This document shows positions 4,701 to 61,076 of a DNA stretch of 64,000 nt, in pieces. The translations under genes were made by a program, and so were the position numbers. Origin of the DNA: Centroscyllium fabricii. Its lineage: Eukaryota. Each line of letters starts with the position of its first letter. Position 1 is the stretch's first letter. Under the pieces are notes generated by a model. That model worked only from the letters and a program-made list of their open reading frames with translations, searched no databases and had not been told where the DNA came from. The DNA is taken from assembly GCA_051313645.2 (NCBI GenBank), contig JBNRSN020000012.1, forward strand, positions 79,794,001-79,858,000, given 5' to 3'.

Positions 4701-5015
4701 ATGGTGCACGGAGGGATGGTGCAAGGAGGGATGGTGCAAGGAGGGATGGTGCAACGAGCGATGGTGCAAGGATGGATCGTGCATGGAGGAATGGTGCAAG
4801 GAGGGATGGTCGAAGGAGGGATGGTGCACGGAGGGATGGTGCAAGGAGGGATGGTACAATGAGGGATGGTACAAGGAGGGATGGTGCACGGAGGGATGGT
4901 ACAATGAGGGATGGTGCAAGGAGGGATGGTACAATGAGGGATGGTACAATGAGGGATGGTGCAAGCAGGGATGGTGCAAGCAGGGATGGTGCAAGGAGGG
5001 ATGGTGCACGGAGGG
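1780..5015. repeat. 15-bp minisatellite (GGTGCAAGGAGGGAT)n, about 3.2 kb
   Basis: Direct reading of the tandem units; the pentapeptide-repeat ORFs (MVQGG, DGARR, WCKEG, HHPSL, APSLL, TIPPC) reflect the 15-nt period. Confidence 0.97.
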
Positions 5016-5489: not shown

Positions 5490-8400
5490 GGGGAGGCGGT
5501 GGTGTAGTGGTTATATCACTCGACTAGTAAGCCAGAGGCTCAGTCAAATGCTCTGAGGATATGGGTTCAAATCCCACCACGGCAGCTGGTGGAATTTAAA
5601 TTCAATTCAATTTAATTCTGGAATTAAATGTTAGTCTTAGTAATGGCGACCATGACACCATTGCCGATTGTTGCAAAAACCCATCTGGTTCACTAATGTC
5701 CTTTAGGGAAGGAAATCTGCCGTCCTTACCTGGTCTGGCCTACATGTGACTCCAGACCCACAGCAATGTGGTTGCCTCTTAATGCCCTCTGAAATGGCCT
5801 AGCAAGCCACTCAGTTGTAAACAACCGCTACGAAAAACAATAAGAATAAAACCGGACGGACCACCCGGCATCGACCTTGGCACCGGAAAAGACAGCGTCA
5901 ACAGCAAACCCGGCCCTGTCGACCCTGCAAAGTCCTCCTCACAAATATATGGGGACTTATGCCAAAATTGGGAGAGCTGTCCCACAGACTAGTCAAGCAA
6001 CAGCCTGACAGAGTCATATTCACAGAATCATACCTTACAGCCAATGTCCCAGACACCACCATCACCATTCCTGGGTATATCCTGTACCACTGGCAGGACA
6101 GACCCACCAAAGGTGGTGGCACTGTGGTATACAGTCGGGACGGAGTAGCCCTGGAGGCCTCAACATTGACTCAGGACCAAATGAGGTCTCATGGCATCAA
6201 GTCAAACACGGACAAGGAAACCTCGTGCTAATTACCACCTACCGCCCTCCCTCAGCTGATGAATCAGTACTCCTCCATGTTGCACATCAATTGGAAGAAG
6301 CACTGAGAGTAGCAAGGGCACAAAATGTCCTCTGGGTGGGAGACTTCAATGTCCATCACCAAGCGTGGCTCGATAGCACCACAACTGACCGAGTTGGCCA
6401 AGTCCTAAAGGACATAACTGCCAGACAGGGTCTGCGACAGGTGGTGAGGGAACCAACAAGAGGGGAAAAACCTACTTGATCTCGTCCTCACCAATCTACC
6501 TGTTGCAGATGCATCTGTCCATGACAGCATTGGTGGAAGTGACCACCGCACAGTCCTTGTGGAGACGAAGTCCCATCTTCATGTTGAGGATACCCTCCGC
6601 CATGTTGTGTGGCACTACCACCGTGCTAAATGGGACAGATTTCAAACAGATCTGGCAACTCAAAACTGGGCATCCATGAGGTGCTGTGGGCCATCAGCAG
6701 CAGCAGAATTGTATTCAACCACAATCTGTAACCTCATGGCCCGGCATATCCCTCACTCTACCATTACCATCAAGCCGGGAGATCAACCCTGGTTTAACGA
6801 AGAGTGCAGGAGAGCATGCCGGGAACAGCACCAGGCATACCGAAAAATGAGGTGTCAACCTGGTGAGGCTACAACACAGGACTACTTGCATGCCAAACAA
6901 CAGAAGCAACATGCGATAGACAGAGCTAAGCGATCTCACAACCATTGGATCAAATCAATGCTCTGCAGTCCTGCCACATCCAGTCGTGAGTGGTGGTGGA
7001 CAATTAAACAGTTAACAGGAGGAGGAGGCTCCAAAAATATCCCCATCCTCAATGATGGTGGAGCCCAGCACATGAGTGCAAAAGGCAAGGCTGAAGCATT
7101 TGCAACTATCTTCAGCCAGAAATGCCAAGTGGATGATCCATCTCAGCCTCCTCCTGAGGTCCCCAGCATCACAGATGCCAGTCTTCAGCCCATTCAATTC
7201 AATCCACGTGATGTCAAGAAATGGCTGAAGACACTGGATACTGCAAAGGCGATGGGCCCTGACAACATTCCGGCAATAGTACTGAAGACTTGTGCTCCAG
7301 AACTAGCTGCGCCCCTAGCCAAGCTGTTCCAGTACAGCTACAACACTGGCATCTACCCAGCAATGTGGAAAATTGCCCAAGTATGTCCTGTCTACAAAAT
7401 GCAGGACAAATCTGACCCGGCCAATTACCGTCCCATCACTCTTCTCTCAATCATCAGCAAAATGATGGAAGGTGTCGTCGACAGTGCTATCAAGCGGCAC
7501 TAACTCAGCAATAACCTGTTAACTGACGCCCAGTTTGGGTTCCGCCAGGGCCACTCAGCTCCTGACCTCATTACAGCCTTGGTCCAAACATGGACAAAAG
7601 AGCTGAACTCAAGAGGTGAGGTGAGAGTGACTGCCCTTGACATCAAGGCAGCATTTGATCGAGTGTGGCATCAAGGAGCCCTGGCAAAGCTGAAGTCAAT
7701 GGGAATCAAGGGGAAACTCTCCATTGGTTGGAATCAAACCTAGCACAAAGGAAGTTGGCTGTGGTTGTTGGAGGTCATTCATCTCAACCACAGGACATCA
7801 CTGCAGGAGTTCCTCAGGGCAGTGTCCTAGGCCCAACCATCTTCAGCTGTTTCATCAATGACCTTCCCTCCATCATAAGGTCAGAAGTGGGGATGTTCGC
7901 TGATGATTGCACACTGTTCAGCACCATTCGAGACTCGTCAGATACTGATGCAGTCCGTGTCCATATGCAGCAAGACCTGGACAACATTCAGACTAGGGCT
8001 GACAAGTGGCAAGTAACATTCGCACCACACAAGTGCCAGGCAATGACCATCTCCAACAAGAGCAGGCCAGAGGCTGGGAATTCTGTGGCGAGTGTCTCAC
8101 CTCCTGACTCCCCAAAGCCTTTCCACCATCTCAAAGGCACAAGTCAGGAGTGTGATGGAATACTCTCCACTTGCCTGGATGAGTGCAGCTCCAACAACAC
8201 TCAAGAAGCTCGACACCATTCAGGATAAAGCAGGCCGCTTCACTGGCACTCCATCCACCACCTTCAACATTCACTCCCTCCACCACCGGCGCACTGTGGC
8301 TGCAGTGTGTACCATCTACAAGATGCACTGCAGCAACTCCCCAAAGCTCCTTCAACAGCACCTTCCAAACCCGCGAACTCTACCACTTAGAAGGACAAGG

Positions 8401-8673
8401 GCAGCAGACGCATGGGAAGAGCACCACCTACAAGTTCCCCTCCAAGCTACACACCATCCTGACTTGGACCTGTATCGTCGCTCCTTCGCTGTCGCTGGGC
8501 CAATGTCCTGGAACTCCCTTCCTAACAACATTGTGGGTGTACCTACACCATATGGACTGCAGCGGTTCAAGAAGGCAGCTCACCACCATCTTCTCAAGGG
8601 CAATTAGGGATGGGCACTAAATGCAGGCCTAGCCAGCCAGCGACGCCCACATCCCATCAATGGATAAAAAAAA
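5490..8673 (+). mobile_element. Near full-length non-LTR retrotransposon (APE endonuclease + RT, probably CR1/L2/Jockey group) with tRNA-like 5' head and no ORF1
   Basis: A-box-like TGGTGTAGTGG 5500-5510 and B-box GGTTCAAATCC 5564-5574; endonuclease motifs (TNIWGL, TES, GGG, GDFN, LDL, SDH); RT motifs (GVPQGSVLGP, FADD); short A tail 8666-8673. Confidence 0.9.
5821..8607 (+). pseudogene. Disrupted EN-RT ORF of the LINE
   Basis: ORF pieces 5959-6231, 6225-6479, 6559-7503, 7665-8228 and 8092-8607 join through frameshifts, a TAA at 7501 and an apparent internal deletion near 8060. Confidence 0.88.
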
Positions 8674-15910: not shown

Positions 15911-18900
15911 TCAGGCGAGGCGCTGAGGTGGCCTGATGATGCGGCCAGCACGTGTCGTGCGCTGCTCCTTGTTCTGCGTAGGAGTGTGGGCGGGGTTTGG
16001 TGCGGTAGGGCGTCCGCGCTTTGGTGGCTGTGCGGGGACTGTTGTCTCGCCCGCCATTACGTGTGCTGGTTTGAGCCGGTCAATGGAGACGGTCTCGGCT
16101 CTGTTGCCCATTTTAATGTCAAAAGTTTTGGGTCCCGCCCGAAGCACTCTGAATGGTCCGTCGTACGGTGGTTGTAGTGGTGTTCGATGTGCATCATGGC
16201 GGACAAACACATACTTGGCATCTTGGATGCTGTCTGGAACACGTGCTGCCGGCTGTCCGTGCCGGGCCACCAGAAGTGGTTTGAAAGCGGCTGCCTGGTT
16301 ATTAAAGTCTCGGAGGCAGCGCTCGGCTGACCAGGGTTCGTTAGTTTCTGCCACGAACTCGCCCGGTACAGTTAGTGGTTGGCCATAGACCAGTTCGGCT
16401 GCTGAGGCGTGTAGGTCTTCCTTGGCCGCTGAGCGGAGGCCGAGCATTACCCAGGGCAGGCGGTCGGTCCAGGTTGCATCTTGGAGGCTGGCCCACAGGG
16501 AAGCCTTGAAAGATCGGTGGAACCGTTCGCAGAGGCCGTTGGCCTGTGGGTGGTAGACGGTGGTTCGGTGCAGGGTTGCCCCGAGGTCGTGGGCGATGGT
16601 TGACCATAGGGTTGAGGTGAATTGGGGGCCCCTGTCTGAAGTGATGTCGGTGGGGACGCCAAAACGGGCGACCCAGGTGGCAATAAATGCCCTGGCCAGG
16701 TCGGCGGTGGTGGTAGCGGTGAGGGGAACCGCTTCCGGCCAGCAGGTGGTGCGGTTGACCATGGTTAAAATGTATGAATGTCCACGTGATGGCGGTAGTG
16801 GTCCGACCAGGTCGACGTGAACGTGGCTGAAGCGTCTAGCTGGGATGGCGATGGGTTCGAGCGGTGCCTTGATGTGGTTGTGCACCTTGGCACGCTGGCA
16901 GGCATTGCAGGCGTTGGTCCAGGCGCGGACATCTTTGCGTAGGCCGCGCCAAACGAATCGCGCAGAGATGAGCTTGGTGGATGCGCGGACACCGGGGTGG
17001 GACAGGCCATGGAGGGTCTGGAAGATGTGTCGCCTCCATGTGTGGGGGACGACGGGTCTGGGTTGTGGGAGGGTAACGTCGCAGCGGACCTCTGTGGCTG
17101 TGGGCTCGTGTGCTACGGTGGCCAGGAGCAGGCCGGGGAGTTTGGTGGCAGGGTCGAGCAGATCGGGGTCGGTCAGTTGGTCGGCCGCCATTTTATTATA
17201 GTCGACAGCCGTTTGGACGGAGTTGATGGTTGGGCGTGAGAGGCAGTGCGCGCAGACGTGGTCGGTGGCGGGTGGCGGGGGGCAGTCGGCGACCACGTTG
17301 TCGATGGCGGGGCGTGGGGGATGGTCGGAGGCTGGTTTGCCGGTAGGGGGGTTTGAGGGGCGGTCAGAGGCCACGTTGTCGATGGCGGGGCGTGGGGGAT
17401 GGTCGGGGGCTGGCTTGCCGATGGTGGGGCGTGGGGGATGGTTGGGGGCTGGTTTGCCGATGGTGGGGCGTGAGAGGCAGTCAGCGACCACGTTGTCGCG
17501 GCCGGCAATGTGCTGGATGTCGGTCGTAAATTCCGACACGGCCGCGAGCTGGCGCTGCTGCCTGGCCGACCAGGGTTCGGAGATCTTAGCCATTGCGGAG
17601 ACCAGTGGCTTGTGATCCACGAAGGCTGTGAAGTGGCGGCCCTCCAGGAGGAAGCGAAAGTGGCGCACCGCGAGGTAGAGAGCGAGTAGCTCCCTATCGA
17701 AGGCGCTGTACTTGACCTCCGGGGGCCGGAGTTGTCGGCTGAAAAAGGCCAGGGGCTGCCAGGAGTCGCCTGTCCACTGCTCAAAGACTGCTCCGACAGC
17801 ATGGTCGGAGGCGTCGGTGGGGAGGGCTACTCTGGCGTTGGGCCTAGGGTGGCTGAGGAGCATGGCATTGGCTGTTTTGGTTGCGGTGAAGGCGGTGGCG
17901 GCTTTGGCCGTACACTCGACCGCGGGTGGCCTGATAGAGGGGGGCCATGAGAGCGGCTGCTCCTGGGATGAAACGATTGTAAAAGTTAACCATCCCGAGG
18001 AATTCCTGCAGCCCCTTGATGGAGTGCGGGCGAGGGAATTCCTGGACCGCCTGCACCTTGGAGGGCAGGGGTATGGCCCCGGTCTGGGAGATGTGGTGGC
18101 CGAGGAAGTCGATAGCCTCGAGGCCGAATCGACACTTGGAGGGGCTTAGTATAAGGCCGTGTTCGGCCAGATGGTTGAAAAGGGCCCTGAGGTGGGTGAG
18201 GTGTTCCTGGGGGGAGGCGCTGGCCATGAGGATGTCGTCGAGCTAGACGAAGGTGAACTGCAAGTCCCGCAGGACTGAGTCCATGAGGCGCTGAAAGGCC
18301 TGGGCCGCGTTTTTGAGTCCGAAGGGCATTCGGAGGAATTCGAACAGGCCAAAGGGGGTAATGACGGCTGTCTTAGGGATGTCCGCCGGGTGCACTGGTA
18401 CCTGGTGGTAGCCCCGTACCAGGTCGATCTTTGAGAAGACCGTGCAGCCGGCTAGCCTTGCGGAAAAATCTTGGATGTGGGGAACGGGGTACCTGTCTGG
18501 GGTGGTGGCGTTGTTAAGGCGGCGGTAGTCTCCGCAGGGGCGCCAGCCGCCGTCGGGTTTGGGGGCGATGTGGAGGGGGGAGGCCCAGGGGCTGCTGGAG
18601 CGGCGGATTATGCCGAGTTGTTCCATGATGTGGAACTCGGCGCGCGCGATCTCCAGTTTGGCCGGGTCCAGCCTGCGTGCGTGGGCATGGACTGGGGGGC
18701 CTGTGGTGGTGATGTGGTGCTCTACGCCGTGCTTGGCGGAGTGGGCTGTGAAGGTGGGGTTGGTTAGGGCCGGGAACTCCGCGAGCAGCGTGGCGTACGT
18801 GTCGGAGTTCCGGGCTCGGCAGTGTGCCGCTGCGTGGGTCTGGTGTGCCGGCCTTGTGGAGCACGGGATGGTCGACATGAGGTGGATGTCGACCAGGCGG

Positions 18901-19931
18901 CGCCGGGTAACATCTACCAGGAGGCCGTGGGCGCACAGAAAGTCGGCCCGGAGTAGGGGTATTTTAACTTGCGCGGTGATGAAGTCCCACGTGTACCTGT
19001 GGCCTGCCAGCTTGATGGTAAGCTGGCGGGTGCCGAACGTGAGTATCTCGGAGCCGTTTGCGGCTTCGAGTGGCGGGCCTTGGGTGCCTTGCTTGGCTTC
19101 TGCGGGGGAGGCTGGCACGATGCTGTGCTGCGCGCCTGTGTCGCAGAGGAAGCGGAGGCCAGAGACACTGTCTGTAACGAAGAGCAGTGCTCCGGAGCGG
19201 CCGACGGACATGGTGGGGCCAGGGCTGGTTTGGGGTTTGAAGGTGCAGGGCTGGACGCAGCGCTGCGCTTTGGCCTCAAACCTGGTGTGGTAGTAGCACC
19301 AGCCTGGGCCCGTGGTGCGCGGTTTTTTGTGTGTCCGCACAGCTCTGGCTTGGGGCCTGGGTTGCGTGTAGTGCTGCTCTGGTGGGGCGGCAGCGTTACG
19401 GTGCATGGTGGCGCGAGTGCGCTCGGCCTTAATGAGCTTGTCTGCCTCCTGCGCTAGCTGCCTGTTTGAGAGGTGCTCCAAGACGGTCAGAGTCGGTCTG
19501 ATGGAGGGGGGCAGCTTAAGGAGGAACAGGGCGCGCTTGAGAGTGGCCGGGTCGCGGTTGAGCGCTTCGAACTGGGCCCACAAGTCGGTGGGGTCTGCGT
19601 CTCCCAGGTCGGGGAGGTTAATGACCTGGCAATCGCGCTCAAAAATGGTTGGGGTGAATTTTTCGAGCAGCGCGGCCTTTAGCGATTCATAACTGCCAGC
19701 AGTAGATTCTTGCTCGATGGTGTCCCACATTCTGTCGATGGTGGACTGTGCAAGGGCTGCGAAGAGCAGGCTGTAGCGGTCGTCTCCCTGTACGCCATAG
19801 ATGCGGAAGGTGTTCTCAGTGTTGAGGAACCAGGCCGCTGGACGGAGCTCCCAGAACTGCGGTAGGGTTGGGATTTGGCTGCAGTGTTGGCCCCGTCTGT
19901 GGTGGCGTGCTGGGTCGATCCCTGCTGGCAT
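15911..19931 (-). pseudogene. gag-pol polyprotein with a nonsense codon in the RT YLDD motif and a frameshift/deletion near 17900
   Basis: Gag (PQFW..RPAAWF, CYYH..C..C), protease LCDTGA, RT ([25 protein letters not shown] with TAG at 18245-18243), RNase H (TDASD, DRELLA, DHKPL), integrase (H..HPG..C..C, HVDLVGP, SDRG, ERFHR, PYDGPF). Confidence 0.95.
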
Positions 19932-20013
19932 GGTGATTGCGATTCCACTGAGGCAGCTTGGCCCTCAGTCCTGCAGCGACTGCTTCATTGTTCCCTTGAG
20001 AATCGTCCCAAGT

Positions 20014-24367: not shown

Positions 24368-24895
24368 CTACAGGGCTCAAAGGCCTTTTTTGATCCCTAT
24401 TTCTTATATTGTTAAAACTAGTTAGAAAAATTAATTTCCCTGCCAAAAACAATAATGTGTCTTTACTTCCTGGTAATGTTCCTTTTTTGTGGAGGGAGAT
24501 GTTCTGAATGCAAAGCTAGGCAGAAGCTTCTTAGGTTGTTGAGTCTGCATACATCAAGTACATACACATAACGGGTCTCATCCATCACTTATACAGTCCT
24601 TTCCAAACCACAGCAGTCCCAATTCCCAGTATAATCTAGGTTCCAAAAGACAGTATAACCAGTTTAAATCCTTCCCAATACAGTCTAAATCAATTTCTGA
24701 CAGATTTCCCTTCATCAGTATTTTATTACTAGTTTCTATTGAAATCATTTGTGGTAAAGCTGTAGCCAGGTTTGATAAGAAAGCCCGGAATGGGAAAAGC
24801 ATTCCTGCCCATTCATTTTATTAGACCATGAACATTCTTCCCTATCATGGCTGGAAAGAATCAAAAATACCTGAACCACTTGATAATTTTCCTAC

Positions 24896-25568
24896 CTTGG
24901 CAAGCAGTCTTCTGTTCAGCAGATTCATATCCAGCAGAGCAGGTACAAGCTCCAACAGGTACCATCCACTCCCCGTCCCCATTACAATACAGCTTCAAGG
25001 GGACAGATACTTCAATAGCGTTAGTGAGACAGGTACCAGGAGCAATGACAAGTGATGTAGGTTCTGCTCCGGTAACTGTTTCTGGAAAAACTGCGAAATT
25101 TGCAATCTCAGATGGGCATTTCTTGTAGTACACACGCAGAGAAATGATTGACATGCATGATCCCAGATCCTGAAACGCTAGGTAGAATCCACTCTTGGAC
25201 AATGGACCAAAGCTTCTGATCTTCGTGTTGACTCTCCCAGACTCCAGTTTGGAAAAACTCTCATCTGGTGCAATGGTGTCCACTTTCACATAAGGGTTCT
25301 CCATCCAGAATGGAGCAGATGCTGTTGCTGAGTCTGTGTCAGACTCATAGTAAAATAAATTAAAAGTTTCCTTACAAGAACCTGGGATATTTGGTATACT
25401 GTTGCAGTCCCGCACAGTGAATTTCATCTCCACATATACTCTCTGAATGTCTTTACGTACTATGTAAGTAGTTCGAAGCCAATTATTCTGGTTTGCTTCC
25501 ATCACATTACAAACCTGGTACGTGCGAATAGGATTCATTCCATCATCATACCCACTTACTTCTTCCCA
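24896..25568 (-). CDS. ephb3: Ephrin type-B receptor 3, exon 3 (ligand-binding domain and start of Cys-rich region), 673 nt
   Basis: [22 protein letters not shown]...[22 protein letters not shown]...[31 protein letters not shown]...[24 protein letters not shown]; acceptor ttcag, donor gtagg; the short loop before RVNTK and IPNIPGS fit EPHB3 better than EPHB1/2. Confidence 0.93.
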
Positions 25569-29202: not shown

Positions 29203-29267
29203 CCCCGATTCTGGGTGTGCAGTCCATCCCAACTCGGCAGTCGCCCATCTTGAATCCATAAGAGTCT
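29203..29267 (-). CDS. ephb3: Ephrin type-B receptor 3, exon 2 (65 nt)
   Basis: (E)TLMDSRWATAELGWTAHPESG; acceptor cacag, donor gtaagg; phase 0 end joins in frame to WEEVSG of exon 3. Confidence 0.93.
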
Positions 29268-37522: not shown

Positions 37523-40500
37523 TCAGGGAGGAAGAGACCTCCCTCCCAGACCAAGGCTGCTTGGCTGCAGGTGGCTGAGGGGGTCAGCTCCTTGGGCACA
37601 ACACACTGGCTCCAGTGTCGGAAGAGATTACATGACCTGCACCGCACTGCGAGAGTAAGTATTCATTTCCCCTCACCCTCAATCTGATCCCCATCACCTC
37701 TCCTCACCAGCACTTAGCTTCACCACTCCCTTCCTCCACATCCAACTTCACTATCACATCCAAGCAACCTTACCCATTCCCTCTCTCTCTCTATGCTCAC
37801 ACTCACAGTCCTTTTCCACCATGCAGCCCTCACACTCCCTCTCACTCTCATGCTTGCAGCACATCTGGCACCACACAGGGAGAACCTTTGGTCTTGCAGC
37901 CTTACTCCATCTTCCTCTCCCTCCAACTAACTTTGCTGTTCACTCGCTGCACCAACTCCTTCCTTCTCACTCAAACTCCACTTCTCTCCCTCATTGCAGG
38001 AAAAGACAGCCGCGAACAAGTGCCAGAGAGCCAGGAGCGGAGGAGGACCCCCCACCATCCTGCAGCTGAGCACCTGGGAGCAGGCAGTCCTGGAGCTGTT
38101 TGGAGAGGGGCAAGCCCCGGAAGTGGCAGACAGCGAGGCAGGCATGGGTTCGCAAGCTGGTGACAGCATTGTTTCATATCTCTCTCATAGCTATCACATG
38201 AGTCTGGCACAATGAATATAAAAACACTGCAGATGGACTTCTGCTCAGCTGGTGAATGCTATCTCTATATGTAACCTTGGTGACATATCTCTAACCTCTT
38301 TCTTTACTGCCCCACAGGACCATCTGCAGACCGCCGGGGGAGTGCTGCTGCAGGAGATTCAGCCTCTTTGCAGTCCTCAGAGGAAGCTCCCATATCTGAG
38401 GGCGCACCATCAGCAGCACAGACACCACCCAGCACCAGCGCAGATACCAGCACCTCGGTGGGCCCCTCTACAGATAGATTAGTATTGTCACCGGGTGAAT
38501 CACAAAGCACAAGTGAGCCTCAGCAGATTGTGGAGACAGGGACAGCATTGCAGAGTCCTAGTCAGAGGGCGCAGGACTCTGCCAGCTTAGCTGAGCTGCA
38601 TGTCGACCCTGTGCCTCTGGATCCATCAGGCAGAGAACAGATGATGGGACTCCAGACAAGAGATGCAGGCGTGTCTGGCAGGTTTTATCTCCGAGATAGC
38701 TGCGGGTGTCAAGCAAATGGAGGGGTCCGACGCGACCATGAGCAGCTCCTTTGCGGAGTCAGTGGTGCAGAACAGCATCACCAAGGCAAGCATGGCAACC
38801 ACCATGGAAAGGATAGCGACCATGGACGAGAGGCTGGCAATGGCCATTGAGCACATAAGTCACCAATGTTTCAAAGACATGGGGAGTCTTCAGAATAGAG
38901 TGACATCTTGAGGAGCGATGGGCATCTATTGAAGACAGGAACCAGACCTTCATGGAAGTCCCTCTCAGTAGGACTTCCAGTGCAGACACGGGTCCCCATG
39001 GCCCCCCGGAAGTGCAGCAAGGTGCTGTCCAGCCACTTGCTGGTGCTGAGGGGGAGCTGACCCATAAGAGGGAGGTTGGTGGAACAGCTGCAGGAGGTGG
39101 GGGCTCCTGTCCAAGCGCTCCCACATCCACACCACTGCAGAGCCCTCGGTCAGAGGCCCGCCAGAGTCCCAATCCACTTGAGATGGAAGTCTCATACACT
39201 GCCCAGCCGCAGGAGCAGCAGACTGGCGGCGAGCCTTCACAGGCTCGCTGCCCCAGAGGACGCCCGCCAAAGGTGTCCACACAGGAGCAGCAGGGAACTG
39301 AGCAGGGGGCTCCACATCTGCTGACACAACAGTGCCAGATCCACGTAGGAGCACGTGTAGGAGAACAGTTAGGAACTGTTAGGCACAAGGGGAGTCACTT
39401 GGGTGATAGGATAACAACAACTTAGGGTTAAGTTCCGCTGGTCACACAGCAGACCAGTAATGGTGGGACCTGATGCAGTTGTCATGTCTGCCCTCTCGCG
39501 AATGGCCCTTCCACATTGAGGCCTTATGCAGGCTGGCCAACATTCATCCAGGCCTCACAGATATGTAGTGATGCAGATGCAAGCTGGCAGAAGGACTTGC
39601 AGCAAGATGCATGTGGTTCAATAGCAGACAGTGGGTCCATGGTGAAGGTCCTTGAAATTGGCCTACCTGAAGGCTCACACAGACCAGCGACCAGAACGCT
39701 CACTCTGGAAACGATCCATCATGCGAACGACCACAAACCGAACTGTAGTAAACTGCTGACGATTAACGAACAGCTGGAAACAAGCCTCAGGGCTCAACGA
39801 CAACACCAACTAAACTGAAGAGGGATGGAGGTGGGCAATGAACAAATGTGCCAACTGGCCAAAGTGCCCACGCATCCAACATGATGTTCTTGCAGCTGGC
39901 CCCCAACAGCACCTGACCCTCATGTAATGGCTAATGAGCCATGGTGCCAGCTTGCCTCACGTCTCAAATCTCCACCGTGAGCAGGTGTGTCCAGGCCCAC
40001 CACAAAGTTTCGCTCACCATCTGCCACATCTCCTGGCGCATGCTGGGATGCGCAGCGCTGAAGCACCTCCAGGACATCCTCATGCACAGCAACCCCAGCC
40101 GTATGAGCAATCTTGACGGCGCTGCCATTATTGAGCGATACATCCTCAGTGGATTGCAGTACCATTGTGCAGGATCACGGTGAGGACGTCAGGCGGTTGG
40201 TCAGCTTTCAGACGCTTCAGAAGACCCACGAAGTCACTCCAAGCCCCACAGCAGAAGCCAATGCTTGCTGTGAATCTCTGGCGCAGTTGAAAAGGGAGGG
40301 GAATCAGAGTAGGAGTGGTAGACCCTGAGGGACAATGAAAATGAACTTGCAATCTCAAAACTGGACTGGCTGAAGTTCAGCATTGCTGATAATGACTTTT
40401 TGAGCTTTGAAAGCTGCATGTATGCAGGTGTGTTGGCTGGGACAACATTAATGCACTGATTGATAGGTGCTGGCCCTCACTCGAACAACCATTCATGTGG

Positions 40501-40816
40501 CCATGGTTGTTTAATTTTGTCATTAAACTTGATGTTACAGTGGCAACCTTTATTGTTTCTGGGTTCATTATTGCATGTGATGGATGGATGGGAACAGGAC
40601 CATAACTGCAGTGTCTTGTGCGTCAGGGGCCTGGGTGCATGCGCGAGCGCTGAAGGCACTCAGAGGCAATTGGCAGCCTCACAAGCCCACCCCCCACATA
40701 CAGATGTTCTTGCAATAGTGGGGATCATGCAGGTATGAGCTATGGAACTGATTGGAGTGTGGCAGTCAGGATGCGCTGTTAAGATGGTCAGAGTAGCAGG
40801 AGCTGGCTTAAGTAGG

Positions 40817-41136
40817 CTAAGCAAATCTTGCAAGGATGAGCTTGTTCCTTGCTTGCCGGGCAGCAATGTTCTCGCCTAATGCTGGCAGTGGCTGGTGTCG
40901 AACTAGAGCAACCCCGTCCTCTTCCTCCTCCCCTTCCTCTTCCACTTCTTCCTCCTGTTCTTCCTCCTCCTCATCATCCGAGAACGGTATGCGAGGAGCC
41001 AGGACTTGGTCAGGAATTTGCGAGCCACGACGCTGGGCCATGTTGTGAAGTTGACAGCAAACCACTACCATTCTGGAGACCCTGGCTGGGGAGCATTGCA
41101 GGGCTCCACCTGATCTGTCCAAGCATCTGAAACGCA
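40817..41136 (-). pseudogene. HARBI1-like Harbinger transposase, C-terminal fragment
   Basis: MRFRCLDRSGGALQCSPARVSRMVVVCCQLHNMA followed by an acidic tract and ARQARNKLILARF; the N-terminal part is missing at the CR1 insertion. Confidence 0.85.
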
Positions 41137-42576
41137 TCATAGAAACATAGAAACATAGAAGATAGGACCAGGAGTAGGCCATTTGGCCCTTCGAGCCATA
41201 TAGGGGGCGCTGTGCTCCGAACGGACGTTATTGGAGGGAGCTCCTTATAATGTAATTTAAAATTTAAAATTCCATCTCTTTTTTAACTTAAATTTAAAAC
41301 ATCAGCCCCTTGGAAGTAGCTGAGAGTTGGGCTGATGGTTTAGATTTGAATTTTAAATTTAGATTTCAAGTTTTTATGTTCTTTTGAATCTCGATGTTTT
41401 TGGGAGATCTGGCCGAAGGGTAGGCCCCAGATCTCCGTTCTACTCACTGTTGGGCCGTTGGTCGGCGTCGGGCTCTGTTTTTTCGCTCCCGAGGTGCGGA
41501 AGCAGGAAGATCTCGGCAGGCTAAATCGGGCCGTTGGTCGCCGTCGGGCGCTGCTCCCCTGTTCCCGTGCGGGAACAGGAAGATCTCGGCAGGCTAAATC
41601 GGGCCGTTGGTCGCCGTCGGGCGCTGCTCCTTTGTTCCCGTGGTGCGGGAGCTAGAAGAGGTAGTCGGGCCTTATCGGGCCGTTGGTCGGCGTCGTGCGC
41701 TGTTCCTTCTCTCCGGAGGTGTGGAAGGTAGAGGAGGTTGTCGGGCCTTCATCGGGCCGTTGTCATTGTCGGGCGTTGTCCCTTTGCTCCAGAGATGCGG
41801 GAGCATGAAGAACTCGTTGGGCGTGAATCGGGCCGTTGGTTGCAGGTGGACTCTTTCACTTTTCTTCCAGAAGACTCTATGGGCATTCATGGAACAGTGG
41901 TCGGAGTTGGGGACTAGTTTTCTTCAATCCAGGAGCTGAGAAATTGGTTCGCCTGAGTGGTCTGCGGTCGGATGGATGGATGGATGATTGGCGATCGGGT
42001 CGCCTTCTGCACTCCCTTAAACATTGATTGACTTGAACATTTATATATATTGAATTGGTTGAATAGCGTCGAATTTAGGAACCGGAGCACATGCGGACCC
42101 TCAACGATGGCGCCGGAAAAATGGCTTGACGTCTTGTGGGTTCTCGCGTGCTGTGTGTCTTTGTTCCTTGTTGTTTAGTTGTAGTTGTTTGGTTGATACA
42201 TAGTGCGTGAAAACTGCAGTAAGCATTTCACCTTCTGAATTTGTTGTTTATTTTCAGTTGTGTGACAAATAAAAAATTTACTTACTTACTTACTAATTAG
42301 ATCATGACTGATCTTTCAGATTCAGTACCCTGTCCCTGCCTTCTCCCCATATCCCTTGATCCCTTCAGCCTGAAGAAATATATCCAACTCCTTCTTGAAT
42401 ATATTTAATGAACTGGCCTCCACCGCCCTCTGTGGCAGAGAATTCCACAGGTTCGCCACTCTCTGGGTGAAGAAATTCCCCCTCATCTCAGTCCTAAATG
42501 GCTTACCCCTTATCCTTAGACTGTGACCCCTGGTTCTGGACTCCCCGACCATCGGGAACATCCTTCCTGCATCTAG
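41137..42576 (-). mobile_element. 5'-truncated CR1 whose 3' UTR is split by a 1.1-kb insertion
   Basis: (CATAGAAA)n tail at 41137-41160; UTR resumes near 42296; ORF end RMFPMVGESRTRGHSLRIRGKPFRTEMRGNFFTQRVANLWN. Confidence 0.8.
41200..42294 (+). mobile_element. Unclassified non-coding retroposon-like insertion with internal tandem repeats
   Basis: Six roughly 65-80-bp units starting GGGCCGTTG (41451-41840); 3' 'gtgacaaataaaaaa' followed by (TTAC)n. Confidence 0.55.
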
Positions 42577-42968
42577 TACATAAGAACATAAGAAATAGGA
42601 GCAGGAGGCGGCCAATCGGCCCCTCGAGCCTGCTCCGCCATTCAACAAGATCATGGCTGATCTGATCCTAACCTCAATTTTATTTTTACTCTCCATCCCG
42701 CCCAAACCCATGTGATCACCCGGGAGAGGCGAAAAACCAGATAAAAAACCCAGTGGCCAATTTGGGAGACAAAATCTGGGAAATTCCACTCCGGCCCATC
42801 TAGGCGATCGAAAGCTGGTCCAGGAGATCACATGGCCGATCTGAACATAGCCTCATGTCCACTTACCTGCCCGCTCACCATAACCCCTAATTCCCTTTAC
42901 TTCCAGGAAACTGTCTATCTCTGTTTTAAATTTATTCAATGTAGTAGCTTCCACAGCTCTCTGGGGCA
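42577..42968 (-). mobile_element. CR1 3' end with long structured UTR
   Basis: Nearly identical to 50375-50765; (CATAAGAA)n tail. Confidence 0.85.
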
Positions 42969-43720
42969 TCTTGAGCAAGCTTTCCCAGGTCACACTGCAG
43001 AAGTGTTTGAGGATTCAACCTTCCACAGGTGTGCTGAAGCCTGTTGCAAGTATCCCCAGGATTGAGACAGCAATGTGGTTGCGAATGCCAATGATGGCTG
43101 ATTAAATGTGAGCCTTCAATGAGGGACCGGCCACAGAGACTCAGCAATCCGAGTGAGTTCCCACAAGGGTTTCACCGGACGGGGTTTACGGTGGCGGGGT
43201 TTGTGCGGGACACAGCTGAAAGTTGCTAAGGGCCCTTAAAATGGCATTAAAGATGGCAATTAAGGGACCTTAATGACCTTAACAAGCATCCCCGCCGGGC
43301 GCCGGTGGGAAAGATTCGGGGCGGGGAAAAAGGCCGCCCAAAAATTCAAAGCCGGCGGGGAATGGGCGGGCTTGGGCGGGAACCAAAATTTTTCGATTTT
43401 CACCTCACGGCCGCCCAAAACACCGCCTGATGGGGACATGAAAACCCCCCCGTACATTCCACAATCTGTGATTTTAACAGAGGCATTGACTCATTTAAAA
43501 TTTAGTAGATTAATGCCTGCAGGTGAACGCTTACATTAAAGTAACACACAGCTCTCTGCTAATAATGCCAATTATTAATTTCAGGCTTATTGCTCTTGTC
43601 ATAATAACAGTCTTAAAACTAGTCTTTGTAATGCATGGAGATAGAAAGAACCTATTTGCAGAAGGGGGATAGGATGGAGTTTGCTTCTGTAGCTCCTACT
43701 TCTTTCCAGATAAAAATATC

Positions 43721-47168: not shown

Positions 47169-50100
47169 TTTAAAATAAAACTGTTGGACTATAACCTGGT
47201 GTGTGACTTCTTGCATAAATTTTAAATACTACAGTATATTTCGAGACTGGGTGGTCCAATACATTAGAACACTGGACTTATCCCTGGGACCCAGATCTGA
47301 ATCCAGCTCCAATCGATGGCAATTAAGGTCTAAAATGAAAGAAATTTGGACAATCTTAACCAAGTTCACAATTCATTCACTGTCTCACTCAGAAAGGCCC
47401 AAGGGGTGGCTGACGTTGAAAATAAAAAAAATCACAGTGGTGCAAAAGGAAGTGAGCATTTGAGATTGGTGTTAATGTACATTCTTGCAACTCAGGAAAC
47501 TTTGCTATGCATCTGTTCTATGCTAGATCTGATCTAGGAGTGCTTGATGCTGACATCAGATGCTAAAAATGGAAAATGTTTTTCAGTCACCTTGTTTGCC
47601 TTGATAGGTTTCTTTATCAATAGAAGACTGTTGAATTCAAAGGGATGAGCAAACTTTGGGCAATGTCTTAACCTCCAGTAATTTTAAAATATAACAAAAT
47701 TATATATATATATACATACAGTATATATAATCTTCATTTGGTTGAGCAGTAGCCAGTTATTTCTCCCATAAAATGCACAAACATATAGCTCGTCTATCCA
47801 TGATTGACCAATAACCGGAATAACAACTTTGCATTTTCCTAATGAGGTCCTATTTCCTAGGCTACATCCTGTCACAGTCACACACCCTATAAGTCAGTCA
47901 TTCATAAATCTTAAGCACTGCAGTCAGTGCACATAGGGCCAAACTGTTCTCCTATGGTCATTGCATAAGTGTGAATAATTAAACAGACAATGGGCAACTT
48001 ACAAACCAACGCTTTCTTCCTCCCCAATTTATTCATATCGCAATGAAGTAAATCTACTGTAGATGTATTACAATGGTGAGGTCTGTCTGGATTTTTTTCA
48101 CAGATATTACAATGCGATTGCCAATGGTACAATGGGAATTCTTGCTAAATGACACAACTGTGATTTAACCATGGACTAATTAACATCTAAAGTCGAACAT
48201 AAGTCCAAAGAAGTCCTTTTCTGAAACTGTTTACCCAGTTACACTGTAATATCAATTAAGCTGGGATGCAGTTAAACACTTAAGTAACAGGAACCTCTTT
48301 CTGGCTCCTGCTGACACAAAATTATTACAATACAACATTCAACTAAGTGCTTCTTATTCTTGTCAACAAGTCAAAATGTTTGCATTTAAAATAAACAGGT
48401 TGAAGTGGACTTACAGTAAACTAGTGAAACTGGCATATACATATTTGGCAAGATCATAAAAATGACTGCAGTGTTTGAATATAGACCCTAGAACTTAGTC
48501 AGAAATGAAAGAATGTTATAAAAGGATGAATCAACTTAATTTGGTTAGGTATGGGTGATGCTGTGGGTGGAGTAACAAAGAAACCACTGTCTAAGTATGG
48601 CATTGGCTTTCTGAAATGCAGAATCACTAACCAGTTCCTGATCACAGAGGCAGCCCCAGGCAAAAAAATCACACTCTGTGAAACCTTTTCTCACGCTTTG
48701 TACTGTTTTATTAATGCACACATCTTACCTTCCACTTTGCATGGCTTACTTTTATGTACCCAGGTTATGCAGCAACTATTAAATCTTCATTATGGTATGT
48801 AAAAACAATAGCTGAATCTTTTACTAAAAGTAATAAGAATTACATTTGCAATGAGCGCTGAATGTATTTTTGTTTTATCTATGTAACAGTTGCTTAGACT
48901 ATTTTACATTTTTTTAGCCCAGGGCCAGAGGCCAGCTGTGTTTGCTGTTACCTAGACATTTTACAAGAGTTTTGTAATTTTCTTCTATTATCTTTATTGA
49001 TTGTTCTTATCTTCAGTCTCATCCATAAAAAAATTATAGTCCTGTGGTTTAACAGGCGTCTACTACAACTGTTACAATTGGTTTTACCTCGTGGGTTGTT
49101 TCATGGTCTCAGCAAAGTACAAAACCTCTCAACACATTGATGTTTAACTTCTCAGTAAAACCCAGATGGTATCTATTCCTTAAAGGGGGTTTGCTATTTA
49201 GTAAACTGTCTTGCAAGGCAATTTAGCCAGCACACTATCATCAGTGTTGGTGAAATTCTATCACTGAATTCACAAACTGCACAAAAAAATGTAAAGCATA
49301 GTTAGTAATGTGAAAATGGCATTGCAAAATTCTTGCATTGAAGAAAATATAGCATCTGTTGCGATGGTGTTCCAATGGGCAATATGATGATATTGCAGCA
49401 GATTTTTCACAGCACAATATTGCTGCACTTGCCCAAATTCTTTCCAATGAACTGAAAATACTAGATTCCTCAGCACGATTCCACAATAAATGAACCATAC
49501 ATAACACACTATAAATGTACTATGCATAACCCACCACAATAAATGTACCATACATAACTCATCACAATAAATTAACCATGCATAACCCACCACAATAAAT
49601 ATATCATACATAACCCACCACAATAAATGAACCATACATAACCCACCACAATAAATTAACCATACAGGGCATGACAAAACCGCTTGCCCGCTTGCCCGGG
49701 GCAAGCAAAATGCGCCGATGGGCAAGCAAATGAAAATCGCACTTGCCCGGTCGGGCAAGTGTGATGTATTTCACATCGATGATCGGGGCCATGGGATGAT
49801 CGTCTTTACGTCTCGGTCTGCCGCGGCAGTCGATTGGAGGAGGCGGTGCGTCAAATTGATTGGTTGACGAAGACGGAAACGGGTGGGTGGATCCCGCCCT
49901 GGAGGCGGGTGCGGATTGGCCGGGGGGGCCGGGCAGCATGGCAGGGATTGGAGGAGGTGGCGTGTCAATCAGGGGACGGGACAGCAGTCAGGTTAGGTGG
50001 AGCGGGCTGGTGGAACGCGGCAAGAGTAGGTCGGTACCGTCGACCCACTGAGGGGGAGAGAAAAGACCGGAGCACTTCTGAGAAGAAAAAAAAACAACTC

Positions 50101-50173
50101 GATCTTTATTCTTTCGATCAGTTATAAAATCTTTATAACTACTCCTCAGTGGGGGGAAAATATATATCAAAGA

Positions 50174-50314
50174 ACGGTGGGGGAAATAGAGTGAGGGAGA
50201 AGCCGAGACCCAGTCCCGAGTATTTGATGCAGCTGATGAACGACAAGAAGCTGATATCGAGCCGGCCCAACTTTTGCGACAACTTCACGGACCCGGAGCG
50301 GCTGCTGGACGAAG
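50174..50314 (+). pseudogene. qki: Captured, disabled copy of QKI (Quaking) coding exon 1
   Basis: ACG(was ATG)-VGEIE, 1-nt deletion, then [40 protein letters not shown]+G, against [50 protein letters not shown]; a second partial copy [10 protein letters not shown] at 50343-50373. Confidence 0.88.
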
Positions 50315-50374
50315 GAGAGAGAGTGAGGGAGCCCGCGGCGGCTTCACGCACCTGGAGCGGCTGCTGGACGAAGG

Positions 50375-51580
50375 TACATAAGAACATAAAAAATAGGAGC
50401 AGGAGTAGGCCAATCGGCCCCTCGATCCTGCTCCGCCATTCAACAAGATCATGGCTGATCTGATCCTAACCTCAATTTTACTTTTACTCTCCATCCCGCC
50501 CAAACCCATGTGATCACGCGGGGCAGGCGAAAAAACAGATAAAAACCCAGTGGCCAATTTGGGAGAAAAAAACTGGGAAATTCCTCTCCGACCCAAACAG
50601 GCGATCGAAACTTGTCCAGGAGATCACATGGCCGATCTGAACCTAGCCTCACGTCCACTTACCTGCCCGCTCACCGTAACCCCTAATTCCCTTTACTTCC
50701 AGGAAACTGTCTATCTCTGTTTTAAATTTATTCAATGTATTAGCTTCCACCGCTCTTTGGGGCAGCTAATTCCACAGCCCCACCACCATCTGAGTGAAGA
50801 AGTTTCTCCTCATCTCAGTTTTGAAATGGGAGGCCCTTATTTTAAGATTATGCCCCCGAATCCTAGTTTCACCCACCATTGGGAACATCCTCACCGCATC
50901 CACCCGATCAAGCCCTTTCACAATCTTATATGTTTCAATAAGATCGCCTCTCATTCTTCTGAACTCCAATGAGTAGAGGCCCAATCTACTCAACCTCTCA
51001 TCATATGTTAGCCCCCTCATCCCCGGAATTAACCTAGTGAACCTTCTTTGCACTGCCTCGAGAGCAAGTATGTCCTTTCTTAAATATGGACACCAGAACT
51101 GCACGCAGTACTCCAGGTGTGGTCTCACCAATACCCTGTACAATTGCAGCAAGACCTCCCTGTTTTTATACTCCATCCCCTTAGCAATAAAAGCCAGCAT
51201 TCTGTTTGCCTTCCTGATCATCTGCTGCACCTGCATACTAACTTTTTGTGTTTTCTGCACCAGGACCCCCAGATCCCTTTGCACTGAAGTACTTTCCAGT
51301 TTCTTTCCATTTAGATAATAACTCGCTCTATTATTTTTCCTACCAAAGTGCATAACTTCACACTTTCCAGTATTATATTCCATCTGCCAAATCTCTGCCC
51401 AATCACTTAGCCTATCTATGCCCTTTTGCAGGTTTTTAATGTCCTCCTCACTCATCACACTCCCTCCCACCTTTGTGTCACCCGCAAACTTTGATATGTT
51501 GCACTTGGTCCCTTCCTCCAAATCATTAATATAGATTGTAAAGAGTTGGGGTCCCAGCACCGACCCTTGCGGAACACCTC
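50375..51580 (-). mobile_element. 5'-truncated CR1 LINE nested in the DNA transposon
   Basis: GVPQGSVLGPQLFTIYINDL...FAGDTK...WQMEYNTGKC...VRPHLEYCVQFW; (CATAAGAA)n tail. Confidence 0.92.
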
Positions 51581-53589
51581 GGCGGGGAGAGAGAGTGAGG
51601 GAGCCCACGGCCTGCGGAGGCTTCACAGAATGTTTGGTAAATGAGGGAAGAATGTTCAGAGTGGAGAGAGAGAAAGAGAGACACCCTGGCAGAGAGGGGC
51701 AGAAACCGGGCCAATGCAACTAAAGACACAATCACAATCTATGGCTTTATATTGAAGCATTTTAATAAAAATGTAAAATCTTTATTTATTTCTTTAAAAA
51801 TTTCAGGCAAGTGAAATTTGTGTTTGGGCAAGTGTTTTAGAAATCCACTTGCCCGACTGGGCAAGTGTTAAAACATTTTTTGTAGCACCCTGCCATACAT
51901 AACACACAATAAATATACCATACATAACCCACCACAATAAATGAACCATGCATAACCCACCACGATAAATATACCATACATAACCCACCACAATAATTAT
52001 ACCATACATAACCCACCACAGTAGATGAATCATACATAACACACAATAAATGTACCATGCATAACCCACCACAATAAACGTACCATACATAACCCACCAC
52101 AATAAATATAACATACATAAGGCACCACAATAAATGTCAATACATAACGCACCACAATAAATGTACCATACATAACGCACCACAATAAATGTACCATACA
52201 TAATGCACCACAATAAAGGTATCATATACAATGCACTACAATAAATGTATCATAGATAACCATTTTAGCTGCCAAAGCACTAAACGTTTTCATTAAAATT
52301 ATTAGCCTAATTGAATTATTTTTAATACCATAGCTAATGATATACCTTTTACTAATATTAAACTGAATTTACCACACCCTAGTTTAATTTTTTTTACTGA
52401 ATAGGGAAATAACCTGAAATTAAGTGGTAATCAACTAGTCTAATGAGTGTTGGGCAAGTTGTAGTCAACATAAAATGGGTATTCACCTCACAAAATGGTG
52501 AGCAGCCTCTCCACAATAAATGGCCATCAGGCACATAAAAAGTGTCTCTAATGTTTCAATAAGACTTCTTCTGTCATTCTATTTAGAATAGACCATCAAT
52601 ATTCTTTTGCAATGGTGCATTCTCAATTACACACAAAGATTATATTAGATAATATTGCTTTTTCTTCCGAACGTAAAGAAAAAATACAAACATTTTGTAA
52701 CCATTCCAACCAAATACCTTGTTTTAACTCACTTAATTAATTATTATAAAACTACATTACCTGTATGTGCATTTGGGATTTCTGTGATTAGATTTATTTT
52801 CTCATTTACCATTTTTCTTTTAGGAAAAATCTTAAAGATTTGATTAAACAAAAACAGAAGTACAGTTGGATATAGAGTCTATGCTGCGATGGGAAGGCTG
52901 CACACAGGCCTCATATTTATAGATGTAGACTCGGTGGGTGGCATAAGGAGGGGCACACCCCCTCATAATCAGCTTGATGTTAAGCTTTTTTTCTCTTCTA
53001 GCAGCATGTACATCAGCCCTGTAAAATACATAAACTATGACCCTCTCTTACCATCACGAAAAATGTACTCCTTTGCAAGTACTGAAATGGGGGATCTCTC
53101 ATGCAGCCTTTATGCAGTAGCTTTTTGATCTTTATGAGTCACTGAGTAATACTACATTAAGGTTTGAATATTTGCTTTAGCAGAAGCATATTTTTCAGCA
53201 TGTAGCATCAGCTACCAGGATCCCCAATGCTAGCTACTTTATGGGGGCTGGGGAGGAAGAAAGGTTAGAAGCTCAGGCCAAGCAACAAAATGTTATACCT
53301 GTACTTCTATGCCTTGGAAACAATAATATTTTGGACAAGACTTAAAAACCAACCACAGATTATTTTAAGGGATAAGGCCCTATAAACAAAAGCATTATGA
53401 GTTATTATTATTCAAATAACCTGCTATAACTAATTTTCAAATTTTCCAAGATGACAACAAGGATAATGCCATTGTAGCCATGATTCCAGAATATTCCTTG
53501 ACTAGTTAGTCTATTATTTTTTGTGAATACTCAAAAAAAGCCAGAATTCTGAACTTAAGAATCACAGAGCAGTGGTTACTAAAATTAAA

Positions 53590-58588: not shown

Positions 58589-59531
58589 AATGTCCTGACT
58601 ACAGCCTGAACGTTATTGAAATCAGGTACAGGTGCAATCGATTTTGTGGGTGTTGTTAGTTTGAAGAAGCAACTTCAAAGTGCACCCTTTCCTTTTGTTT
58701 CTATCTGTGGAAAGTCTTCCTTACAGCGGCCTGGGTTTTCATTGTCTGTCCACACATACATATCACCAGTCTGATCACCAACCCGGAAATGTTTGTTCCA
58801 ATTCACTTGTGTGGCAATCTGCAGACATTATACACACCTCACACACAGAGAGATACAGACAGGGAGAAATAGATCGAGTTCTTCGAGGGTTTTTTTTTTA
58901 GTTACACGAAATGTATCGAGTTGCAAGCAAGGAACCATTTACTTTGTGGCTCCCCATAATAAAAATATTATCAACTGTCTGGATTAGAGATGAGCTGTTT
59001 GTAAGTAACTGGAAGCTTTGCCTTGCATAGTACTCCCGAGAGTTGTAAACCGAACCACAATCCGCTGGTTATAATGAGGCGAAAACCACTCCTAAAAAAG
59101 GAAAACAGTGAAACACCAATTCTCCTTGCAGTTGTTTATTTAATGTGCTGTCATGGTATCTGGGGGATATGCTTCCTTTTAAAAAAAAAATCCACTGAAA
59201 GGAACTGAATCCGCCAGCCCTTGTGCTGAAAACACCAGAACAAGAAGGCATGCAACTCTTAATGTAGGAACTACACCGGGCTGCCACATGAGCAGGTTTT
59301 TTTTTAACCATCCTGCATTCTTTAGATCGGCTTCCTTTCTGGGAATGCAGAGGGAAGGGAAGGGGAGTAAAAGCCAACAGTAATGTGCGAAATTCACTTC
59401 AGACAAAAGGATCCCAGGAGCATATTGAAATTCACACCGTCCCGGCCTCCTTCCATGTCTGCCTTGGATGAGGGGATTGTGCAGGGCGCGCCATCAGCTG
59501 ATCGTGCTGCCGGGACACGGGGCGCAGCACT

Positions 59532-61076
59532 CCAGCCCCCACAGCCCAGCCCAGGACCCCAGACCCCACAGCCCAGCCCAGGACCCCACAGCCCAGCCCA
59601 GGACTCCAGTCCCCACAGCCCAGCCCAGGACCCCAGACCCCACAGCCCAGCCCAGGACCCCACAGCCCAGCCCAGGACTCCAGACCCCACAGCCCAGCCC
59701 AGGACTCCAGAACCCACAGCCCAGCCCAGGACTCCAGACCCCACAGCCCAGCCCAGGACTCCAGACCCCACAGCCCAGCCCAGGACTCCAGACCCCACAG
59801 CCCAGCCCAGGACTCCAGTCCCCACAGCCCAGCCCAGGACTCCAGAACCCACAGCCTAGCCCAGGACTCCAGTACCCACTGCCCAGCCCAGGACTCCGGC
59901 AGTCCCCACTGCCCAGCCCAGCCCAGGACTCCAGTCCCCACAGCCCAGCCCAGCCCAGGACTCCAGTCCTCACTGCCCAGCCCAGGACTCCAGACCCCAC
60001 AGCCTAGCCCAGGACTCCAGACCCCACAGCCTAGCCCAGGACTCCAGACCCCACAGCCTAGCCCAGGACTCCAGACCCCACTGCCCAGCCCAGGACTCCA
60101 GTACCCACTGCCCAGCAGAGCCCAGCCCAGGACTCCAGACCCCACTGCCCAGCCCAGGACTCCAGTCCCCACTGCCCAGCCCAGCCCAGGACTCCAGTCC
60201 CCGCAGCCCAGCCCAGGACTCCAGTCCCCGCAGCCCAGCCCAGGGCTCCAGTCCCCACAGCCAGGCCCAGGACTCCAGTCCCCACTGCCCAGCCCAGGAC
60301 TCCAGTCCTCACTGCCCAGCCCAGGACTCCAGTCCCCACAGCCCAGTCCAGGACTCCAGTCCTCACTGCCCAGCCCAGGACTCCAGTCCCCACAGCCTAG
60401 CCCAGGACTCCAGTACCCACTGCCCAGCCCAGGACTCCAGTACCCACTGCCCAGCAGAGCCCAGCCCAGGACTCCAGACCCCACTGCCCAGCCCAGGACT
60501 CCAGTCCCCACTGCCCAGCCCAGCCCAGGACTCCAGTCCCCGCAGCCCAGCCCAGGGCTCCAGTCCCCACAGCCCAGGGCTCCAGTCCCCACAGCCCAGC
60601 CCAGGGCTCCAGTCCCCACAGCCTAGCCCAGGACTCCAGTCCCCACTGCCCAGCCCAGGACTCCAGTCCCCACTGCCCAGCCCAGGACTCCAGTCCCCAC
60701 TGCCCAGCCCAGGACTCCAGTCCCCACTGCCCAGCCCAGGACTCCAGTCCCCACAGCCCAGCCCAGGGCTCCAGTCCCCCCAGCCCAGGGCTCCAGTCCC
60801 CACAGCCCAGCCCAGGGCTCCAGTCCCCACAGCCTAGCCCAGGACTCCAGTCCCCACAGCCCAGCCCAGGGCTCCAGTCCCCCCAGCCCAGGGCTCCAGT
60901 CCCCACAGCCCAGCCCAGGGCTCCAGTCCCCACAGCCTAGCCCAGGACTGCAGTCCCCACTGCCCAGCCCAGGACTCCAGTCCCCACTGCCCAGCCCAGC
61001 CCAGGACTCCAGTCCCCACAGCCCAGCCCAGGACTCCAGTCCCCACAGCTCCGGTCCCCACAGCCCAGCCCAGGGC
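59532..61076. repeat. 27-bp GC-skewed minisatellite (CCAGCCCAGGACTCCAGTCCCCACAGC)n
   Basis: Direct reading; 9-aa periodic ORFs (TAQPRTPDP, GWAVGTGVL); unit-length variants from gain or loss of 5-nt blocks. Confidence 0.96.

Follow-up and report, generated by a model that had tools for sequence, protein, structure and literature searches.

A qki exon-1 fragment inside a probable Pack-TIR transposon upstream of ephb3 exon 2 in Centroscyllium fabricii

How the first coding exon of one gene comes to lie inside a transposon within another gene, and by which molecular route, is the question raised by a 2.2-kb insertion at the ephb3 locus of the elasmobranch Centroscyllium fabricii. The window analysed comprises 64,000 nt of the forward strand of contig JBNRSN020000012.1 (79,794,001-79,858,000), and all positions are counted from its first letter. 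A preliminary description of this DNA had placed in it a Pack-type DNA transposon carrying exon 1 and a probable promoter of qki, the gene of the Quaking protein (QKI). The stretch from 49665 to 51892 is a real terminal inverted repeat (TIR) element. On balance, and with some reserve, it is understood as a non-autonomous, hAT5-like transposon holding a 5′ piece of qki that was captured at the level of DNA and has since been rearranged and has decayed, hence as a Pack-TIR.

The ends carry the identification of the element. At the level of single letters, CAGGG starts at 49665, CCCTG terminates at 51892 and CCATA flanks both sides, just as the preliminary description had read them. The element interrupts a 28-bp tandem array which, upon removal of the element together with 5 nt, is restored with an in-register junction unit; the repeat score after excision is 711 for 5 extra nt, compared to 696, 704 and 684 for 0, 4 and 8 nt. 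Poorer restoration of the array ruled out a target-site duplication of 4 bp or of the hAT-typical 8 bp. Counting this element, 14 CAG..CTG pairs in the window combine perfectly inverted 5-bp ends with a duplication of 5 bp; the subterminal inverted match of 21/22 is unique to the element, the other 13 pairs reaching at most 15/22. Eight of the window's 15 GGGCAAG/CTTGCCC words are located in the two ends, both of which fold as hairpins. Elements with these ends number one in the window. An older, outer element around the array, hinted at by inverted single end-type motifs at 49427 and 52452, was rejected in that no inverted ends with duplication were found. Helitrons are rolling-circle elements lacking TIRs and target duplication, and gene capture by a Helitron was discarded with both features present. 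Short CAG-type termini accompanied by subterminal repeats are presumably hAT-like, and none of the 51 stop-to-stop frames of at least 90 aa in 29.4-59.4 kb of the window contained a transposase family. The 5-bp duplication fits hAT5, described with duplications of that length and reported in fish in PMC12730594 and PMC9004415 (PMC6004678 does not mention hAT5). The ends found here equally agree with the CMCT clade (EnSpm, Chapaev, Transib), for which PMC12730594 gives CA..TG ends and duplications of 2-5 bp, a weak feature that hAT5 shares.

The cargo is identified with comparable clarity. Residues encoded by 50191-50313 match the QUA1 chains of Quaking in the PDB entries 2ymj, 4jvh and 4dnn (E 1.1e-14 to 7.3e-10) and the Pfam family STAR_dimer (E 7.8e-10), and the best named matches among 377 are skate and shark quaking-A. 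The disabled 141-nt copy of the QKI N-terminus that had been proposed is thus present at 50174-50314 (copy 1), its start ATG changed to ACG and its frame shifted by a one-base deletion at codon 7. Compared codon by codon, copy 1 differs by 11 residues from Heptranchias and by 10 from Leucoraja; the chondrichthyan QKI proteins listed differ from one another by few changes in the same region. A 78-aa frame from the ATG at 50227 is still open, with the start of helix 1 gone. According to PMC3592866, QUA1 extends to residue 57 and the E48G variant does not dimerise; the exon-1 piece is therefore without E48, I49 and V52, and reading through past the exon places G at position 48. The coding piece has decayed and is predicted to be incapable of making a working QUA1 domain. 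As an observation apart, five of the 11 changes in copy 1 (M28, L31, I37, H40, L41) fall on the 11 dimer-interface residues listed in PMC3592866, an enrichment with post hoc P values of 0.07 (codons 1-47), 0.045 (8-47) and 0.01 (17-47). Beyond the first part of exon 2, the chondrichthyan proteins named quaking-A diverge from the QKI of amniotes. R12 and T39 of these chondrichthyan proteins recur in the captured piece, which may have a paralog as its source and not the gene orthologous to mammalian QKI. The sequences that carry quaking-A and ephb3 in Rhinoraja measure 32.8 and 54.0 Mb, respectively, and this difference in length makes a distant qki source probable.

The end of the homology bears on the route of capture. 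The homology stops at GACGAAG, in keeping with the earlier reading, and the main match extends past residue 47 only at low identity. That exon 1 ends there had been stated in the preliminary description and is backed by gene models reading through the boundary: 16 of the 24 named proteins listed continue into exon 2, and among the eight that leave the QKI frame right after LLDE, short models chosen on purpose, six go on with G as a phase-1 junction of G followed by GT predicts. No exon 2 sequence stands behind either of the two exon copies in the element, both of which stop at the exon-1 boundary, and QKI exon 2 or any later exon gave no match with E < 0.4 elsewhere in the window. Neither a poly(A) tract after the exon nor a separate target duplication around the qki piece was seen at the element, which leaves the piece free of the marks of a processed pseudogene (spliced junctions, poly(A) tail, target duplication of its own). 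The proposal of a TIR DNA transposon with a qki exon-1 copy, as opposed to a spliced retrocopy, is upheld by these observations. Inverted matching ends (compared with each other), a 5-bp duplication around the whole element and, in the 141-nt copy, host-derived internal sequence above the 100-bp limit agree with the definition of Pack-TIRs.

The interior is more complex than the preliminary description conveyed, which had the ends and the exon copy right and missed a second exon copy with its GT, a 1204-bp fragment of a long interspersed element (LINE) and a duplicated GA-rich tract. Copy 2 represents the last 39 bases of the exon and is identical to copy 1 at 31 of 33 positions in the core; 11 of its 12 residues are identical to Callorhinchus QKI, and copy 2 is therefore less decayed than copy 1. 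The GT at the exon end follows copy 2 only. The two GA-rich copies agree at 33 of 34 aligned bases, the left one lacking 7 nt of the right one. The LINE fragment, which we take to be CR1-like, lies antisense, makes up 54% of the element (1024 bp in length without it), has one premature stop and no target duplication that could be seen, and is 93% identical over 396 nt to 42576-42971. This second LINE 3′ end begins with the same GT before its tail, reflecting either a target preference or a part of the LINE itself.

Upstream of copy 1, all four ATTGG (CCAAT) boxes claimed in the preliminary description were recovered. Their tract looks like a promoter: the observed/expected CpG ratio is 0.9-1.15 over 49665-50364 compared to 0.48 for the window, and the only place in the 64 kb where four CCAAT words fall within 125 bp lies a short way upstream of the exon, a clustering reached by 19 of 5000 shuffles for a region chosen post hoc. 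The tract could just as well be a promoter that belongs to the transposon itself; at most, it could still fire antisense to ephb3. Comparison of 49776-50173 with translated upstream stretches of four records of bony-vertebrate type gave no match, in a test that is insensitive. None of the papers listed by a literature search described a QKI promoter with CCAAT boxes, and a phage sequence collection had no match to 49665-50175. Rfam returned for 49400-52400 one match, below the gathering score and judged to be chance.

The preliminary description had further suggested that the gagag after the exon is possibly a mutated gtgag splice donor, an interpretation that finds no support in this form: the gagag is the start of the GA-rich tract, which is repeated at 51587, and the sole GT at an exon end stands behind copy 2. 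The gagag would represent the tract with GT, perhaps with 7 more bases, missing, and a single T-to-A change is not evident in it. If the LINE is disregarded, the exon end is followed by GT and the GT by the GA-rich tract. That both exon copies stop at the boundary is expected if an intron, not recognised as such, follows. Our judgement leans slightly towards a native intron start that has overwritten 12 exon bases, a single event that would account for four clustered changes; a renewed copy of the exon with an internal deletion is judged possible as the origin of the tract, if less so. Either origin is a DNA-level event.

A mechanism consistent with these features would begin with a non-autonomous cut-and-paste element, having short TIRs and a 5-bp target duplication, that inserted into the minisatellite of the intron preceding ephb3 exon 2; its subterminal GGGCAAG palindromes would be probable binding sites of the transposase. 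A break or stalled fork inside the element would have been filled by DNA copying from the distant 5′ end of qki (quaking-A), taking up exon 1 and probably also the upstream promoter and untranslated region (UTR) as well as the first bases of intron 1. Slippage at microhomology would then have duplicated the exon end together with the tract behind it, and the LINE would have inserted at the end of the second exon copy, an order of capture, tandem duplication and LINE insertion suggested by the nesting of the parts. Several points weigh against this reading in its full extent. The qki origin of the promoter, UTR and intron flanks is unproven. Two of the four ATTGG share one repeat, and counting three independent sites the cluster is reached by 3.5% of shuffles; an NF-Y flank pattern is fully fitted by only one of the four; and a CpG richness just as high is seen in further mobile elements of the window. 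The GA-rich tract resembles the exon, scoring above all of 3000 shuffles and all of 12322 background windows, and it matches codons 3-9 at 18 of 20 positions without gaps, the frameshifting deletion of copy 1 included (0 of 400 shuffles), by a scoring chosen after the match was seen; captured intron sequence is therefore unproven. The GT behind copy 2 also opens the related LINE at 42576, and the perfect terminal repeat measures only 5 bp.

Much of this would be accounted for if the CpG/CCAAT tract, perhaps along with the A-rich stretch, were the transposon's 5′ interior and the promoter of a lost transposase, and if a short qki exon, template-switched over itself, had served as filler, with no qki promoter or intron involved. 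The position of the tract directly after the left end and the same-strand AATAAA near the right end give the layout of an internally deleted autonomous element, and the exon-like character of the post-exon tract as well as the missing upstream homology for 49776-50173 point the same way. Random filler is, however, unlikely to end both exon copies exactly at a splice boundary; promoter-like tract, UTR-sized gap and codon 1 follow in the order expected of a qki 5′ end; and the homology test covered translated sequence of bony-vertebrate type only. We consider this explanation rather unlikely, though it is the one to be taken most seriously. Transfer via RNA into a pre-existing transposon, be it by reverse transcription of an unspliced or cut-short qki transcript or as a LINE chimera, would fit with a LINE adjoining the exon end and with homology that stops at a splice boundary. 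LINE chimeras carry the passenger RNA joined to the 5′ end of the LINE and reading in the LINE's direction, whereas the present LINE runs antisense, with its 3′ tail next to the exon. Considering in addition that neither exon 2 nor poly(A) after the exon nor a separate target duplication around the qki piece was seen, an RNA route appears improbable. That the ends and the duplication are coincidental, the 2.2 kb being an ordinary insertion or patchwork in a CCATA-rich minisatellite, could draw on the 13 further 5-bp-TIR/5-bp-duplication pairs that occur by chance in the window and on CCATA being part of the array unit, but is hardly credible given the 21/22 subterminal palindromes, the 8/15 GGGCAAG/CTTGCCC words in the ends and the exactly 5 extra bases that break the array register.

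DNA-level capture of a qki piece by the TIR element remains the preferred explanation, and most likely the element is a functionless Pack-TIR relic. A bolder proposal, namely that a multicopy TIR family with 5-bp duplications spread a working qki CpG-island promoter, exon 1 and splice donor through the elasmobranch genome and drives antisense transcription in ephb3, with the coding piece disabled under selection, we regard as quite doubtful. It would imply removal of a dominant-negative dimerisation peptide with the promoter kept, an idea built on the five of 11 interface changes. The 111-aa chimeric frame gave eight candidates among proteins, none of them significant, in a search that missed known QKI fragments and so says nothing on other copies.

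The preliminary description had called DNA-level gene capture seldom reported in vertebrates, a statement overtaken by animal Pack-TIRs (PMC8277862) and bat Helitrons (PMC4224331). The former surveyed 100 animal genomes, 55 of which yielded a total of 370 Pack-TIRs, with exonic cargo in 13.4% and with four multicopy cases, under a demand of at least 90% identity to a unique parent. They arise mostly by gap filling with microhomology and are mostly single-copy and near the parent; multicopy ones are always distant, yet most distant cases are single-copy. Examples from the survey are the CAPSL 5′ UTR in the frog element hAT-N8_XT, in three copies, and an ERP44 exon plus intron in human HSMAR2. 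Like these, the element encloses host sequence of a few hundred bases between TIR ends and a target duplication, with junctions at microhomology; unlike them, it holds a copy that is decayed, internally duplicated and LINE-interrupted, in an elasmobranch and seemingly distant from the parent. "QKI" is absent from the 12 supplement files of PMC8277862, a weak result in that Supplementary Data 1 apparently lists coordinates, not gene names. Bat Helitrons have taken promoters from 15 genes, and some, HelibatN3/NUBPL among them, carry the promoter together with the 5′ UTR, the first exon and a part of intron 1 (PMC4224331); the cargo proposed here is likewise a gene 5′ end with promoter, and nested retro-insertions into cargo are described there too. 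In contrast to the present element, the bat cargo has been demonstrated by alignment and has multiplied to thousands of copies. Similar to the Pack-MULEs and Pack-TYPE elements of plants, the element is a non-autonomous TIR element with gene fragments, and Drosophila Ssk-FB4 also took 5′ upstream sequence; the FB4/MULE type has long TIRs and duplications of 9-10 bp (PMC8277862), whereas the present element has a perfect repeat and a duplication of 5 bp each and a cargo without function.

Among the titles listed by searches of the open literature, neither a shark case nor this element, end motifs included, was found; subscription journals, Repbase and Dfam lay outside the scope of that search, and the element may already be catalogued. 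TIR gene capture is known in vertebrates, and in cartilaginous fish it may not have been described before. The locus matters as a clearly delimited case of a TIR transposon that has taken up a piece of a host gene in a cartilaginous fish, a group represented in the survey by the elephant shark alone, with no Pack-TIR recorded (PMC8277862). Should the promoter indeed derive from qki and the element exist in multiple copies, the element would do by cut-and-paste what bat Helitrons do in spreading promoters, and it could be a source of transcription antisense to ephb3, the gene of a developmental receptor. If it is silent and present only once, it would be one more decayed Pack-TIR.

Table 1. Coordinates of the element, its parts and the surrounding ephb3 features in the window
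Feature	Position	Strand	Evidence
ephb3 exon 3	24894..25568	-	protein homology
ephb3 exon 2	29203..29267	-	AG acceptor and GT donor
28-bp tandem array, left part: insertion site, ending in left target duplication CCATA (49660-49664)	49481..49664	.	repeat analysis
Left transposon end: CAGGG, six GGGCAAG/CTTGCCC motifs, 22-bp palindrome 49740-49761 (inner boundary approximate)	49665..49775	+	motifs, hairpin z -5.0
CpG-rich promoter-like tract: four ATTGG (49833, 49859, 49915, 49947), 23-bp direct repeat holding two	49776..50020	+	motifs, composition
A-rich, UTR-like stretch	50021..50173	+	composition
Copy 1 of the coding part of qki exon 1 (codons 1-47 and one further base)	50174..50314	+	PDB, Pfam, protein comparison
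GA-rich tract, left copy; joins second exon copy via short shared word	50315..50347	+	
Copy 2 of exon 3′ end, about codons 35-47	50335..50373	+	sequence and protein comparison
GT directly after copy 2, candidate native splice donor, may be part of LINE tail	50374..50375	+	
LINE fragment, 5′-truncated: C-terminal part of reverse transcriptase and 3′ UTR	50376..51579	-	Pfam RVT_1, E 2.9e-9
GA-rich tract, right copy	51580..51626	+	alignment to left copy
Interior sequence: transposon or further captured DNA	51627..51745	+	no significant window match beyond one 15-nt word
Right transposon end: AT-rich, AATAAA at 51764, GGGCAAG motifs, palindrome 51846-51867, CCCTG (inner boundary approximate)	51746..51892	+	hairpin z -3.8
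Right target duplication CCATA (51893-51897) and remainder of 28-bp array	51893..52261	.	repeat analysis

The host gene is elasmobranch ephb3 on the minus strand of the window, opposite to the element. Exon 3 is 95% identical to the Heterodontus ephrin type-B receptor 3-like protein, the best 20 of its 6335 matches are chondrichthyan EphB3, and the closest of 13 proteins compared has 11 residue differences in 247. The placement inside ephb3 intron 1, as given in the preliminary description, stands insofar as the element lies upstream of exon 2, with exons 2 and 3 both found. The number of the intron is deduced, because the window showed no match to exon 1, which in relatives encodes residues 1-18; presumably this exon lies beyond position 64000. 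An ATG-started hydrophobic, signal-peptide-like frame at 59289-59190 (minus) was considered as exon 1 and rejected, being unlike the N-termini of the 11 relatives compared.

Other repeats and mobile elements populate the window. Downstream of ephb3 exon 3, 15911-19964 (minus) is CpG-rich and apparently young, with long open frames of 573 and 744 aa that we take to be gag-pol of a Ty3/Gypsy-type long terminal repeat retrotransposon. A fragmented LINE occupies 5821-8607 (plus), its frames presumably endonuclease- and reverse-transcriptase-like, and a partial inverted copy of it is found at 301-825 (minus). Minisatellites comprise 216 copies of 15 bp at 1781-5015 and 56 copies of 27 bp at 59525-61049. 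The region 37600-41950, CpG-rich and without a match to any Pfam family, contains several frames of 130-210 aa and a 76-bp tandem repeat (41452-41840), and is probably another transposon.

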